Source of the DNA: Candidatus Berkelbacteria bacterium CG10_big_fil_rev_8_21_14_0_10_43_13
GTDB lineage: Bacteria > Patescibacteriota > UBA1384 > XYA2-FULL-43-10 > 1-14-0-10-43-13
Reading direction: 5' to 3'
DNA length: 64,000 nt
Assembly: GCA_002773985.1 (NCBI GenBank)
Contig: PEZW01000018.1
Location: forward strand, 34,240 to 98,239
Made by a program: the position numbers and the translations under genes. A model generated the notes under the pieces. The model saw only the letters and a program-made list of their open reading frames with translations. It was not told the origin of the DNA and did no database searches. This document shows, in pieces, positions 48,640-57,860 of the stretch (the first letter of the stretch is position 1; each line of letters begins with the position of its first letter).

Positions 48640-48776
48640 GTAACTGCTCATTTGCAGTGTCATTCCCGCGCAGGCGGGAATCCAGGCAGCACAAACTTTT
48701 TATGGATCCCCGGGCACCACTCTCGAGAACACCGCTGGTCCCGAGGATGACAATGATAGGGTGAGTGAGTAGTTAC
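48640..48776. repeat. MITE-like palindromic element with ATTCCC-N8-GGGAAT core
   Basis: gtaactgctca...tgagtagttac shell around tgtcattcccgcgcaggcgggaatccag...ggatgaca. Confidence 0.85.
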
Positions 48777-53288: not shown

Positions 53289-53496
53289 CTCGACTCCCTT
53301 TGTCAGTGCGATGGCAAAAGAGTACAATATTAAGACAAATTTTGCAATATTTCTCCTGAGTACTCAGTACTATGCACTGCATACTGCGTACTGAGTACTA
53401 TCTAGATTTGACTTTCACGCTTGAGTCCTGCTAAAATTGGCTCAGTTGAGATCGAATTCTGAATAATATCATTCTTAATTCTGAAAGAGGAACTCT

Positions 53497-54792
53497 ATGG
53501 GCAAACAAGTCTATCAAACAGCGCGGGGAACCAAGGATATCCTACCAGCCGAACAGCCGTACTGGGCACAGATCAAACAAGTTGCCGAAAAAACCTTACT
53601 TGGACTCGGTTTTGGCCGCATCACACTGCCGCATTTTGAAGACGCTGATATCTACACCAAGGGGATCGGCGCTGATACTGACATCGTGTCCAAGGAAATG
53701 TTTTATCTCAAATCTCACACTGATAGCGACTCGGTCAAACTTGCCCTCCGACCCGAAGGTACTGCCGGCGCTGTCCGCTCTTATATCCAAAACGGTATGT
53801 CAAGTTTGTCACAGCCCGTCCGCCTATATTACACCGGCGCTATGTTTCGTCACGAGCGACCACAAAAGGGCCGCTTTCGTGAATTTTATCAGGTCGGCGT
53901 CGAGATTTTTGGCGATGATTCAGCCAAAGCTGATTATCTCGTCATAATGTCTGCTTGGGAGATCCTGAATCGTCTTGGTTTAAAAAACTTAATCGTCTAT
54001 GCCAATTCGATCGGCTGCCCGAAATGTCGGCCGAAATATATTGCGAAATTAAAAAAATATTACAAAAGTCATCTCGACAATCTCTGCACTGATTGCCAAA
54101 ATCGTTATGAAGTCAATCCACTTCGCCTGCTCGATTGTAAGGAAGACAGTTGTCAGAAGGTCGCCAAGGGCGCCCCGACCATGCTCGACAATCTCTGCAC
54201 TGATTGCAAGACACATTTCCAGCAAACTCTCGAGTATCTTGATTATTTCAACATCCGCTACGATCTGGATCCGACACTGGTCCGCGGCCTCGATTATTAC
54301 ACGCGGACTGTTTTCGAAATCGTTGATAAGAGTGACAAGGGGCGCAAAAACACCATTGTCGGCGGGGGTCGCTACGACGGCTTGGTCGAATTACTTGGTG
54401 GTCATTCGACTCCAGCTGTCGGCTATTCGATCGGGCTAGAGAGACTGGTTGGGGCGATGAAAGAGCAGGGGATTAAGCCGCCAAAAACTCGCGGCGTTGA
54501 AGTCTGTATTCTCCAGCTCGGTGACAAAGCGCGAGAAATTTCCAAAAAAATTTACGACACCTTGGCAAAATCTGATATAAATGTTTATTTTGTCCCTAGT
54601 AATGATGGTATCCGACCACAGATCAAGTCAGCTGCCAAGATTGGGGCAACATACGCCGTCATCATCGGCCAGAAGGAAGCGCTCAACGATGAGATTATTC
54701 TGCGCGACCTGACCTCGTCCTCACAGGAAGTTTTCTCCTCCAAGGATATCGCCGAAGAGATCAAGAACCGCTTGATCAAATGTGAATGCTAA
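53497..54792 (+). CDS. hisS: Histidine--tRNA ligase
   Basis: RGTKD, LRPEGTA, RHERPQKGRFREF, VRGLDYY, GGGRYD. Confidence 0.97.
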   Translation: MGKQVYQTARGTKDILPAEQPYWAQIKQVAEKTLLGLGFGRITLPHFEDADIYTKGIGADTDIVSKEMFYLKSHTDSDSVKLALRPEGTAGAVRSYIQNGMSSLSQPVRLYYTGAMFRHERPQKGRFREFYQVGVEIFGDDSAKADYLVIMSAWEILNRLGLKNLIVYANSIGCPKCRPKYIAKLKKYYKSHLDNLCTDCQNRYEVNPLRLLDCKEDSCQKVAKGAPTMLDNLCTDCKTHFQQTLEYLDYFNIRYDLDPTLVRGLDYYTRTVFEIVDKSDKGRKNTIVGGGRYDGLVELLGGHSTPAVGYSIGLERLVGAMKEQGIKPPKTRGVEVCILQLGDKAREISKKIYDTLAKSDINVYFVPSNDGIRPQIKSAAKIGATYAVIIGQKEALNDEIILRDLTSSSQEVFSSKDIAEEIKNRLIKCEC

Positions 54793-54840
54793 CAACTTTG
54801 AACTTTACATACTTTTTTACTTTATAAACTTTCTCACTTT

Positions 54841-55293
54841 ATGAACTTATCCCTTGTTCTCGACAATATCCGCTCGATGCAAAACGTCGGTTCGATTTTT
54901 CGAACCGCCGACGCTGCTGGAGTTAGTAAGATTTATCTCTGTGGCTTCACGCCCAAACCACCGCGCAAGGAGATCGACAAAGCGGCTCTCGGCGCCGTTG
55001 ATTTTGTCGAGTGGGAATACCAAGACAATTTAAAAAATTTAATTTTCAATTTAAAAACAAAAGGGATTAAAATCATTGCCCTCGAACAGCATGAAAACTC
55101 AACCCCTTATACGTCATACGTTATACCTAATACGAATACTCTCGCTCTCATCGTCGGTAACGAAGTCGACGGCATCTCCAAAGAAATTTTGGAACTATGC
55201 GACGACATTATCGAAATCCCGATGCACGGCCAGAAGAATTCTCTAAATGTTGCCGTCGCCACAGGCATCGTGTTATTCGAATTAATAAAATAA
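54841..55293 (+). CDS. TrmH/SpoU-family RNA methyltransferase
   Basis: LDNIRS..NVGSIFRTADA, GNE..GI, IPM.G...SLNVAVA. Confidence 0.93.
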   Translation: MNLSLVLDNIRSMQNVGSIFRTADAAGVSKIYLCGFTPKPPRKEIDKAALGAVDFVEWEYQDNLKNLIFNLKTKGIKIIALEQHENSTPYTSYVIPNTNTLALIVGNEVDGISKEILELCDDIIEIPMHGQKNSLNVAVATGIVLFELIK

Positions 55294-55380: not shown

Positions 55381-55428
55381 ACTTTTTATCCTTTTGACTA
55401 ACGATCGTTGTATAAAAGGATAAAAAGT
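55381..55428. repeat. 48-bp near-perfect palindrome (copy 1)
   Basis: actttttatcctttt-gact-aacgatcgtt-gtat-aaaaggataaaaagt. Confidence 0.92.
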
Positions 55429-55442
55429 TTTAGAATTACATT

Positions 55443-56042
55443 ATGATCCAAAAAGAGACAAAAGAAATTATTAAATTAACTAGCAAGGAAATTTTACTTC
55501 TTTTTGCGGACGGGGTGGCATCTCTCGGATTTGCATTTACAAAATCCAAAAAAGACAAAAATGCTTTAGGAAAATATTTAGATGAACGATCCATCGATCG
55601 ATCAGATTTTTCACGAAAAATATATCGTCTCAAGCAACGCGGTTATATCCGAAAAATCGTTGAAAACAAGAGTGATTATATTGAGCTTACCGACTTAGGT
55701 AAAAATCGTGTAGAGATAAATTATTTAAATGAGCTGAAACCGAGAATTTCAGATCACTGGGACAAAAAATGGCGAATTATAATTTTTGACATTCCGGAAA
55801 AGTACCGCACAATCCGTGATGTCATCCGTTCAAAACTTTATGAACTTGGTTTTATCCAGGTTCAAAAAAGCGTGTTTGTATATCCGTTTGATTGCCATCA
55901 TGATATACAATTAATTTGTAAACATTATGGTGGATCAACCTATATTAAATATATGATCGCAGAAATTATTGAGGGGGAAGAAGAGTTCATAGAAATATTT
56001 ATTAATAATAACATACTAACTAAAGATATTTTATCCTTTTAA
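55443..56042 (+). CDS. PaaX-like protein: wHTH plus Cas2-like ferredoxin-fold domain
   Basis: IYRLKQRGYI...LTDLG, then WDKKWRIIIFDIPE...R..L..LGF..VQKSVFVYP. Confidence 0.85.
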   Translation: MIQKETKEIIKLTSKEILLLFADGVASLGFAFTKSKKDKNALGKYLDERSIDRSDFSRKIYRLKQRGYIRKIVENKSDYIELTDLGKNRVEINYLNELKPRISDHWDKKWRIIIFDIPEKYRTIRDVIRSKLYELGFIQVQKSVFVYPFDCHHDIQLICKHYGGSTYIKYMIAEIIEGEEEFIEIFINNNILTKDILSF

Positions 56043-56070
56043 CTAACGATCGTTAGTTAAAAGGATAAAA
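56029..56070. repeat. 42-bp perfect palindrome (copy 2)
   Basis: ttttatccttttaactaacga|tcgttagttaaaaggataaaa; contains the stop codon of the PaaX-like gene. Confidence 0.95.
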
Positions 56071-56115: not shown

Positions 56116-57438
56116 ATGAGAATAAAAATTGAGAAGTTAATATATGAAGGCTGGGGCATCGGGCACGACGAAAATGGTCGCGCTGTTTTTGTCAAAAAAT
56201 CTGTTCCTGGCGACGTCTTGGATGTCAAAATAACCAAAGAAAAAAAGTCCTATACTGAAGCTGTGATTGAAAAAATAATCGAGCCATCAGAAAAAAGAAT
56301 TGATCCACCATGTCAATATTTTGATCTCTGTGGTGGCTGTGAACACCAAAATATTGCTTATCCTGATCAATTGAAATTTAAAGAAGAAATTTTTAGAGAA
56401 ACGCTGTCGCGGACAAAAATTGAGACAGAGATATTGCCAATCGTGCAAGCCTCTGAGCCATTCTTTTATCGCAACTCCATCCGTTTCTTTTTGGTCGAGC
56501 AAAAAAGCGGAAAGAAAATTTTCACTCGCCACAATTATCTCTACACTGATGGCTTAGTCGAAGCAGAAAGCTGTTTGCTCCAATCAGTAAAATCAAACCT
56601 GATTTTGTCTCTGATTTTAGAAGTCGTCAATTCTGATCGCAACAAATCTCTATCCGGTTTTTATCAGGTCAAGATCCGTGAAGGTAAATTTACTGATGAA
56701 TTTATGGTCGAGCTGATGACTGATGACAATAAGTTGCCATTTGAGCTGGAACTAAAAACCGCCCTCAATCAAATTCCGGAGATTAAGTCCCTCTATCACA
56801 CAGTCACTCCACAGAGGCAACTGAGGAATATTCGACGACGCTTACTTCATGGCTCACCAATAATAAGCGAAAAGATTGATAAATATAAATTTCAGATTTC
56901 GCCAGATTCTTTTTTTCAGACCAATTCACTCGGAGTTAAGGCTTTATATGACAAGATCAAGGAATTCGCACAGATCGAAATGGGGGACACTGCTCTTGAT
57001 CTTTTCTGCGGTACTGGCACGATCGGTATTTATCTCTCGACACTGGCCAAGGAAGTTGTCGGCGTCGAAGTCGTCCAAAGTGCCGTCAATGACGCCAAAG
57101 TCAATGCTAGAATAAATAATATTTATAATTGTGAATTTATCCACGCCGATGTAAATATGTGGCTTAGAAATGAAAAAATTGAAAAATATGAAAATATAAA
57201 AATTATCCTCGATCCGCCTCGCGCTGGGCTAAACAAAGAATTGATCAAAAAACTTTCTAACTTTTTGTCCTTGAAAAACTTTACAAACTTAATTTATGTT
57301 TCCTGCAACCCTGCGACTTTTGCCCGCGACATCAATGAATTTGAATTACATGGACTAAAATTAAAAAAAGTCCAGCCACTGGACATGTTTCCGCAAACCC
57401 ATCACCTCGAATGTGTCGGATTATTGCAAAAGATCTAA
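56116..57438 (+). CDS. rlmD: 23S rRNA (uracil-1939-C5) methyltransferase
   Basis: TRAM domain, C...CGGC, SFFQTN, DPPRAG, YVSCNPAT, DMFPQTHHLE. Confidence 0.93.
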   Translation: MRIKIEKLIYEGWGIGHDENGRAVFVKKSVPGDVLDVKITKEKKSYTEAVIEKIIEPSEKRIDPPCQYFDLCGGCEHQNIAYPDQLKFKEEIFRETLSRTKIETEILPIVQASEPFFYRNSIRFFLVEQKSGKKIFTRHNYLYTDGLVEAESCLLQSVKSNLILSLILEVVNSDRNKSLSGFYQVKIREGKFTDEFMVELMTDDNKLPFELELKTALNQIPEIKSLYHTVTPQRQLRNIRRRLLHGSPIISEKIDKYKFQISPDSFFQTNSLGVKALYDKIKEFAQIEMGDTALDLFCGTGTIGIYLSTLAKEVVGVEVVQSAVNDAKVNARINNIYNCEFIHADVNMWLRNEKIEKYENIKIILDPPRAGLNKELIKKLSNFLSLKNFTNLIYVSCNPATFARDINEFELHGLKLKKVQPLDMFPQTHHLECVGLLQKI

Positions 57439-57496
57439 TCAGTGCAAACGAGCCGCTCGAGATTTTGGTAAACCAGGAGCGGCTCCGAAAAGGGGA

Positions 57497-57631
57497 GGTG
57501 AGGTGGCCTGTCTCTAGGAGCGCCAATGCGATGCCTGTGTGACATTCTAGACTACTGCTCGTCACAGCAGCCGAGAATGTGGCCAACCACACAGGCACTA
57601 TCCGTGTCGGGATTGTCGCACCACCTCACCT
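57497..57631 (-). ncRNA. Putative structured ncRNA (rod-like with central bubble; 6S-like topology)
   Basis: Nested stems aggtgaggtgg/ccacctcacct, tgcctgtgtg/cacacaggca, acattct/agaatgt, ctgct/agcag; TTGACA and TATAAT boxes directly upstream on the minus strand. Confidence 0.65.
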
Positions 57632-57860
57632 GTGATTATATTAGCGTTTTTCAATTTTTTGTCAATCTTATTAAAAGTTTTCCACAGGCCTTTGTTTGAC
57701 TTTTGTTTGGGTTATGTTCGATAATGTATAAGTAAACAGACCGAACACAATCGGATTTCAATTCTACCGACACTAAATATTAATCCGCATTTGTATGTTT
57801 GTATTAGATTTGTCCCCCAAAGGGGGATCTCCCCTTGGGATGATAATTTGTAGATATCTT

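Follow-up and report, generated by a model that had tools for sequence, protein, structure and literature searches.

The gene studied here encodes a short PaaX-like protein, mini-PaaX, and together with the two long palindromes that flank it forms a unit that recurs, in most cases with a palindrome pair of its own, among the relatives tested. I give a probability of about one half to the reading that this unit is a self-repressing cassette, in which a dimer of the protein would read both ends and which would be relocated slowly by host recombination and repair rather than by a catalytic activity of its own. The gene-palindrome unit is apparently undescribed in print; no description was found in the openly accessible literature searched.

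The cassette and its family

The window, i.e. the whole stretch of 64,000 nucleotides that was analysed, contains the following features at this locus:

54841 to 55293, plus strand: SpoU/TrmH-family methyltransferase gene, the left flank, a host gene outside the cassette
55381 to 55428, no strand: P1, the upstream palindrome, 24-bp arms with symmetry in 20 of 24 pairs, dyad at 55404/55405; predicted left end of the cassette and predicted operator
55408 to 55436, plus strand: candidate sigma-70 promoter, TTGTAT-17 bp-TAGAAT, read by eye from the sequence
55443 to 56042, plus strand: mini-PaaX gene, 199 aa, ATG at 55443 (open reading frame, profile and fold matches)
55548 to 55730, plus strand: winged-helix domain, about residues 36-96 (structure model, co-variation)
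55752 to 55982, plus strand: Cas2-like (PaaX_M) domain, residues 104-180 (Pfam, co-variation)
56029 to 56070, no strand: P2, the downstream palindrome, perfect 21-bp arms (42 bp), containing the stop codon TAA at 56040-56042; predicted right end of the cassette or second binding site
56116 to 57438, plus strand: rlmD, the right flank, a host gene outside the cassette

An earlier note on this DNA had described a near-perfect palindrome of 48 bp lying 14 bp 5' of the ATG and a perfect one of 42 bp over the stop codon, and both are recovered, near-perfect standing for four mismatched pairs in P1. As the note also held, they share their centre, the AACGA/TCGTT dyad, and are direct repeats of each other, with 91% identity over 43 nt. 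The half-site pattern matches four times in the window and not once in 100 shuffles, and the DNA fold z-scores of the two palindromes are -6.1 and -8.8; Rfam returns chance hairpin matches only. The cassette is indeed AT-rich (GC 31%, against 42% for the window) and interrupts a pair of RNA-methyltransferase genes. Its description as a solitary gene holds within the window but not in the genome (an assembly of 838 kb, 91% complete), which contains six paralogues and 14 solo palindromes.

Dispersed short repeats are numerous in the source genome. Within the window, a REP-like hairpin repeat of the GTCATTCCCGCG...GCGGGAATC type is located between a wecG-like gene and nusA (48640-48760), tandem repeats of 7-9 nt (GTACTGA and AACTTT types) occupy intergenic spacers at 53356-53401 and 54795-54850, and hisS contains two identical 24-nt repeats 111 bp apart (54073-54207), each encoding LDNLCTDC within a Cys-rich insert. 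A spacer of 350 bp (57440-57790) separates rlmD from a lexA-like gene; its first half (57440-57630) is G+C-rich and possibly structured, and ARAGORN finds no tRNA or tmRNA in the spacer.

That the protein joins a winged helix-turn-helix (wHTH) to a Cas2-like domain agrees with the profile matches, which are strong for PaaX_M (PF20803, E 9.7e-22, residues 104-180), weak for the wHTH and below cut-off for Cas2. A PDB search with the single sequence gave no match. The AlphaFold model (pLDDT 83.8) is closest in fold to E. coli PaaX (8a39, Foldseek E 1.6e-5; VIA Z 9.2, rmsd 6.8 over 172 residues), followed by PaaX-family and Cas2 structures and by MarR/PadR-type winged helices, with Z values of 8.8 and 8.4 for the Cas2-type structures 8ia4 and 3exc. 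Neither context that such a protein calls to mind is present: paaA and paaC are absent from the window and from the 91%-complete genome, as is cas1 from the latter, and the window contains no CRISPR-like array of short-spaced repeats. In an alignment with five full-length actinobacterial PaaX sequences, P118, E119, R125 and R129 are common to both proteins, and the C-terminal domain of PaaX is missing from mini-PaaX. No longer, fused forms of mini-PaaX were found, which is weak evidence.

The expectation that homologues carry cognate palindrome pairs of their own was borne out. In the source genome, all six paralogues have such a pair, the other five being 28-41% identical to the window copy. 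From the order, represented by 44 genomes, 102 family loci were fetched out of about 120 matches listed, and 87 of these have a pair at the strict score of at least 56, a score reached by 7% of mismatched upstream/downstream controls and by 8 of the 344 open reading frames of the source genome, a number that includes the six paralogues. When inspected by eye, 98 of the 102 loci have a family-type pair; these 98 cassettes form the set analysed below, and four loci were dropped. In a sample of the phylum the gene occurs in 47 of 201 genomes, and of the 27 loci fetched 19 score above the control maximum, three more have a family-type pair and five have none. Pairs are general, and the gene is not syntenically fixed, the 98 cassettes falling into 58 flank clusters; the combination of naked homologues and fixed synteny that would have pointed away from a distinct unit is not what is seen.

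Copies number from 0 to 14 per genome in the order. A profile search yielded 6,391 clusters at 50% identity (E <= 0.001), a figure that may include Cas2 and PaaX proper. The source genome is of CPR type, as the named close homologues come from Patescibacteria, including Berkelbacteria, and several family members are labelled 'CRISPR-associated Cas2' in lineages largely without CRISPR. The genes that flank the cassettes (135 neighbours scanned) are varied, unrelated housekeeping genes with no common function. At one locus (L031 of genome G010, about 2900-2960), the 3' end of the mini-PaaX reading frame includes P2, which is in frame and translated there.

Predicted recognition of the palindromes

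Across the family, the two arms of the sites are symmetric in 86-98% of cases at positions ±1-4 from the dyad, in 61-77% at ±5-9 and again in 84-95% at ±14-18; symmetry decays beyond ±19, and information is at most 0.42 bits at ±19-26. The CG at ±2,3 of the core is common to the whole family, positions ±9-11 form an A/T tract, and each cassette has an outer arm of its own. Sites with a non-modal base at ±2 keep their symmetry in 33 of 38 cases. In the predicted hairpin the central four bases form the loop, and since loop bases need no symmetry, the central symmetry speaks against a hairpin; the palindromes look like duplexes bound by protein. The earlier suggestion of a cruciform or hairpin-resolution substrate was rejected, and likewise a hairpin-telomere substrate, as the family sites are mostly imperfect at ±5-9, lose their symmetry near ±19 and are most symmetric at the would-be loop. 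No sbcD was found in the 91%-complete genome, an absence that may let perfect palindrome copies persist. The spacing of the outer elements matches that of the PaaX site, TGATTC(N27)GAATCA; PaaX is also a repressor of its own promoter (PMC9493321). Solo palindromes show no significant excess of symmetry over cassette sites (p 0.30). A helical phasing of the P1-P2 distance was also considered, but the 10.4-bp signal is weak (p about 0.01, n = 98 and n = 68); in 22 loci of the phylum it did not recur in phase, and it was set aside.

Protein and palindrome co-vary, as the earlier note had anticipated. The overall Mantel correlation between protein and site is 0.40 (rho; 0/500 permutations), among kin that are not independent. 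With kinship ignored, the top residue-base links join K142, E119, R122 and R129 to positions ±1-4 of the core, and R53, S57, K59 and R62, in the helix of residues 53-65, to positions ±14-18 of the outer arms; these pairs fall where a PaaX-like dimer would be predicted to place them. At the level of domains, the partial correlation between the wHTH and the outer arms is near zero (<=0.06), and their link is visible only in the residue-level analysis, in which kinship is ignored. The clearest pattern concerns residue 119. Where it is acidic (Glu/Asp), position ±2 is C/A (91/91 cassettes), and where it is Lys, Arg, Asn or Gln, position ±2 is T/G (7/7), the seven latter cassettes being located on several branches of the quick tree used for the co-variation. 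The 22 separate loci of the phylum set follow suit: all 17 acidic proteins have mainly C/A, and the five non-acidic ones mainly T/G, with one mixed case. The amino groups of C and A can donate a hydrogen bond to an acid, and donors suit T or G. The residue-119 rule and the co-variation are together the strongest evidence that the protein would read its own ends, and the predicted binding of the palindromes by mini-PaaX is well supported.

A dimer of mini-PaaX likely binds each palindrome of about 38 bp; its Cas2-like part, seated on the dyad, would read ±1-4, with E119 reading ±2, and its two winged helices would read ±14-18. Binding at P1 would block the -35 region and so repress the promoter of the gene itself. 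The candidate -35 element, TTGTAT (4/6 consensus), is built from the asymmetric bases of the inner arm of P1, and the candidate -10 element, TAGAAT (5/6), lies 6 bp 5' of the ATG, a position that suggests a leaderless mRNA; the pair is absent from the output of the promoter scan. The distance from the P1 dyad to the ATG clusters at 25-29, 34-39 and 44-49 bp in 56 of the 98 cassettes, with five in the gaps between, and at the clustered distances P1 always overlaps a promoter placed just before the start. From co-variation and geometry, a mini-PaaX dimer on a long palindromic operator, repressing its own promoter, is likely. The earlier note had set a mobile unit against a double-operator autoregulator, and these turn out not to be exclusive: P1 overlaps the predicted promoter, and the cassette also relocates.

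P2 would be a second site marking where the unit ends, possibly with a bridge to P1. It usually cannot be an operator for the downstream gene, because in 60 of 95 cases that gene is convergent with the cassette. Each paralogue would drift to a private palindrome, so that residents do not silence one another, and perfect palindrome copies would arise by arm-to-arm correction, a known mechanism. What self-repression leaves unexplained is the strong purifying selection on the gene (dN/dS 0.03-0.13 in 7 pairs), as a pure self-repressor has no output.

Relocation, solo palindromes and passenger genes

Empty sites between trmH and rlmD, for which the earlier note had proposed a search, do exist: in 11 of 20 relatives, including a same-genus genome, the two genes are adjacent without any palindrome. 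Six of the others carry unrelated accessory genes there (L028-L030, L033, L035 and L042), two lack trmH, and one (G010) has a cassette that is 50% identical and has a different palindrome. Given this varied content, trmH-rlmD is a general insertion hot spot rather than a clean empty site. The 3' junction of recO is common to cassette lineages that are 23-33% identical, and in 30 genomes, a sample to which five cassette loci were added on purpose, it holds seven cassettes and two solos and is empty in 21. The queA 3' junction is common to two lineages (23-25% identical), and one junction is filled by cassettes in both orientations. The same site is kept between cassettes at 93% and at 84% identity, sites being inherited within and across genera; with the purifying selection and the lack of near-identical copies in any genome, this points to a slow pace of relocation. 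A scan of genome contigs gave one locus and a metagenome scan three near-identical loci, with no strain-level pair of empty and filled sites.

The source genome contains 14 solo sites, against 0-1 in shuffles, and ten of these match a resident cassette at no fewer than 30 of 38 bases. Those of the window cassette are C22:10777, which is perfect, and C9:98812. Each of the two solo patterns searched, among them the motif of the window cassette, occurs only in the genome with the cognate gene (1/44 genomes of the order). C9:98812 amounts to an inserted segment of about 55 bp within a leader that is conserved otherwise. At the two alignable sites, C9:98812 and C23:10240, the solo is absent from the orthologous place in a same-genus genome. 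Where the source genome has C9:98812, genome G001 has a GTACTGAG array, which resembles the tandem repeats of the window. No match was found between the 14 solos and the cassette junctions of relatives in the flanks sampled, and the number of solos at junctions that bear cassettes is too small to demonstrate an enrichment. In G014 and G023, the solo at recO matches a cassette elsewhere in the same genome. Four family-type solos of the source genome (G000: C9:147, C22:16836, C22:18770 and C24:46409) match no resident cassette, and their cassette gene may have been lost or may be unassembled. The C22:16836/18770 pair was rejected as a clean insertion, as parts of the enclosed region also match at that locus in relatives. 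A further candidate, L078, in which a C22 solo flank is joined to foreign, TGA-rich DNA with a TGA-interrupted reading frame (1-919) that I take to be TrmB-like, was dropped as a probable assembly chimera, the partner probably being an organism with an alternative code.

Palindrome pairs also enclose genes that are not of the family, in 4 of 92 distinct pairs. The stand-alone case (G010, L387:930-1540) consists of two identical perfect palindromes around a frameshifted gene between grpE and dnaK, and they are cognate to the trmH-rlmD cassette of the same genome. None of the other 29 grpE loci has the enclosed gene, which is presumably cupin-like though with no Pfam match; its five homologues have other locations and no palindromes. 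Four other genomes have a mini-PaaX cassette at this place 3' of grpE. In the three tandem cases a third cognate palindrome lies next to a cassette (L365:227-1567 in G023, L092:829-1416 and L069:572-1341), and the passengers encode a Zn-ribbon protein, GrpB and a hypothetical protein.

Solos and bracketed passengers could be the target operators of ordinary small regulons, with the paralogues as transcription factors. The PaaX ancestry of the protein favours such regulons, as do the match of solos to the sites of resident proteins, restricted to the genome with the cognate gene, and the ATG of the G010 passenger, which lies 39 bp from the dyad, the modal distance in cassettes. However, several palindromes are located between convergent 3' ends, the neighbours have no function in common, the ligand-binding C-terminal domain is missing, and at both alignable sites the solo is not shared with the same-genus genome, which leaves this reading improbable. 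Under self-repression with passive relocation, solos would be scars or copies, arising by loss of the gene between P1 and P2 or by copying of the site, and host enzymes would bring about the slow change of address. Ten cognate solos in one 838-kb genome and a passenger between identical palindromes are nevertheless more than passive loss easily explains.

This excess, together with the conserved residues of the Cas2-like domain, gives some room to a catalytic protein. D116, R125, Q141 and S143 are invariant in 98/98 cassettes, and D116 is found in none of the five full-length PaaX sequences, in which Q141-x-S143 is likewise not kept; these invariant Cas2-type residues fit a catalytic role. The nuclease VapD requires D7 and S43 for its activity (PMC3351183), and by motif these look equivalent to the residues of mini-PaaX. 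In an autonomous minimal mobile element, the winged helices would place the Cas2-like dimer on the dyad, and the dimer itself would nick or exchange strands, by way of D116 and a metal. Such an element would excise and insert the gene, seed solo palindromes and sometimes move passenger genes, its activity being restricted by self-repression to entry into a naive cell. Besides the invariant residues, it would accord with the copy numbers and the 58 flank clusters, with the recO and queA junctions common to divergent lineages and the one filled in both orientations, with the solos at recO in G014 and G023, with the passengers, with a P2 that in 37 of 98 cassettes touches the stop codon or overlaps it, and with asymmetries common to both palindromes, 116 of them direct and 32 inverted.

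Against it, the marks of transposition are missing. No excision, inversion or circle joints are present in the contigs of four runs, contigs being prone to drop rare variants; one run (X1) has a single unexplained contig break at P1. Target-site duplications are absent (mean 4.9 nt, against 4.75 nt in controls), and no genome has near-identical copies, the highest identity among 224 within-genome pairs being 78%. The family has no invariant Tyr or His (the best-conserved are present in 72/98 and 32/98, respectively), and orientation is constant at recO (7/7) and queA (5/5). None of 50,697 phage records matches, the 23 plasmid matches are weak and of the PaaX family where annotated, and the single homologue on a viral contig is without palindromes. 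Of the one-gene mobile unit that had been proposed, relocation stands; nicking and self-encoded mobility are putative, with no joints in those contigs, no target duplication and no invariant Tyr/His found. It is doubtful that CPR bacteria have in the cassette their smallest autonomous unit for moving DNA, in which a fusion of wHTH and Cas2 would read a 38-bp palindrome through a simple code of residues and bases and would cut or exchange DNA at its dyad by means of the Cas2-type Asp. The source genome also encodes three Y1 transposases, which could act in trans on the cassette; its palindromes are without a REP-type foot.

The same invariant residues (PMC3351183) could belong to a self-repressed nuclease toxin or defence gene, a Cas2/VapD-like RNase or DNase unleashed when autorepression fails, e.g. 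upon phage infection, and spread like other accessory defence genes. The patchy, multi-copy distribution under purifying selection agrees with this, and so does the observation that CPR lineages are mostly without CRISPR-Cas (PMC4742961). The Cas2 surface, however, co-varies with the palindrome core and so probably has duplex DNA bound to it, the PADLOC matches (Cas2 and CARF-HTH) are weak, no partner gene is seen, and the neighbours are varied housekeeping genes rather than defence islands. As solos and passengers would also be left unexplained, I consider a toxin the least probable of the readings, and both it and the regulons are weaker than a recombinase of Cas2 fold.

Comparison with known systems

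Each gene of the family has a predicted binding site beside it, and through the E119/±2 rule the specificity can be tested directly. At the least, the cassettes would provide a natural set of compact, mutually orthogonal repressors and operators, along with an example of DNA sequence being read by a Cas2 fold. Were the domain catalytic, they would constitute a novel means of DNA movement in streamlined genomes, and a truly autonomous element would represent a new class of recombinase or transposase with thousands of natural orthogonal protein-site pairs.

In contrast to DDE-type insertion sequences, the cassette has neither target-site duplications nor near-identical copies. With Cas2 and VapD, mini-PaaX shares the ferredoxin-like fold, the Asp of beta-1 and the D...Q.S motif. 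In the Cas2 dimer, the scaffold of Cas1-Cas2, the middle of a DNA duplex is held between the two alpha-1 helices (PMC11021501), and the same is predicted for mini-PaaX on the dyad. Unlike Cas2, it is fused to a wHTH, scores below the Pfam and TIGR cut-offs for Cas2 and is apparently sequence-specific for the centre of the DNA.

REPtrons (RAYT/TnpA-REP; PMC8266576) resemble the cassette in layout: the gene is flanked by cognate palindromes, cognate solos occur in intergenic DNA, and protein and palindrome co-evolve. The RAYT protein, however, is an HUH/Y1 enzyme that acts on single-stranded hairpins preceded by a conserved motif, whereas mini-PaaX lacks HUH, an invariant Tyr and any Y1_Tnp match. 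The palindromes of the cassette are zero-loop dyads, symmetric through the dyad, with no foot motif or conserved tetranucleotide seen, and each cassette has 1-3 solos, compared with many in REPtrons.

PaaX itself (8a39; 3l09 from Jannaschia; TIGR02277, PF20803) has the same wHTH and Cas2-like middle domain, shares W.D..W and PE..R...R with mini-PaaX, and binds a palindromic site of about 39 bp with outer recognition elements, much like the palindromes of the cassette (PMC9493321). The differences are the lack of the C-terminal ligand-binding (phenylacetyl-CoA-binding) domain, mini-PaaX ending before it at 199 aa, a TIGR02277 score of 31.7 bits against a cut-off of 264.6, the retention of D116 and QxS, a conserved symmetric core in the site, a second site at the stop codon, and the many paralogues with private sites. 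None of five paaX genes has a flanking palindrome pair. The mini-PaaX cassette would function in the manner of a PaaX-type autorepressor and is laid out like a REPtron, but belongs to neither family.
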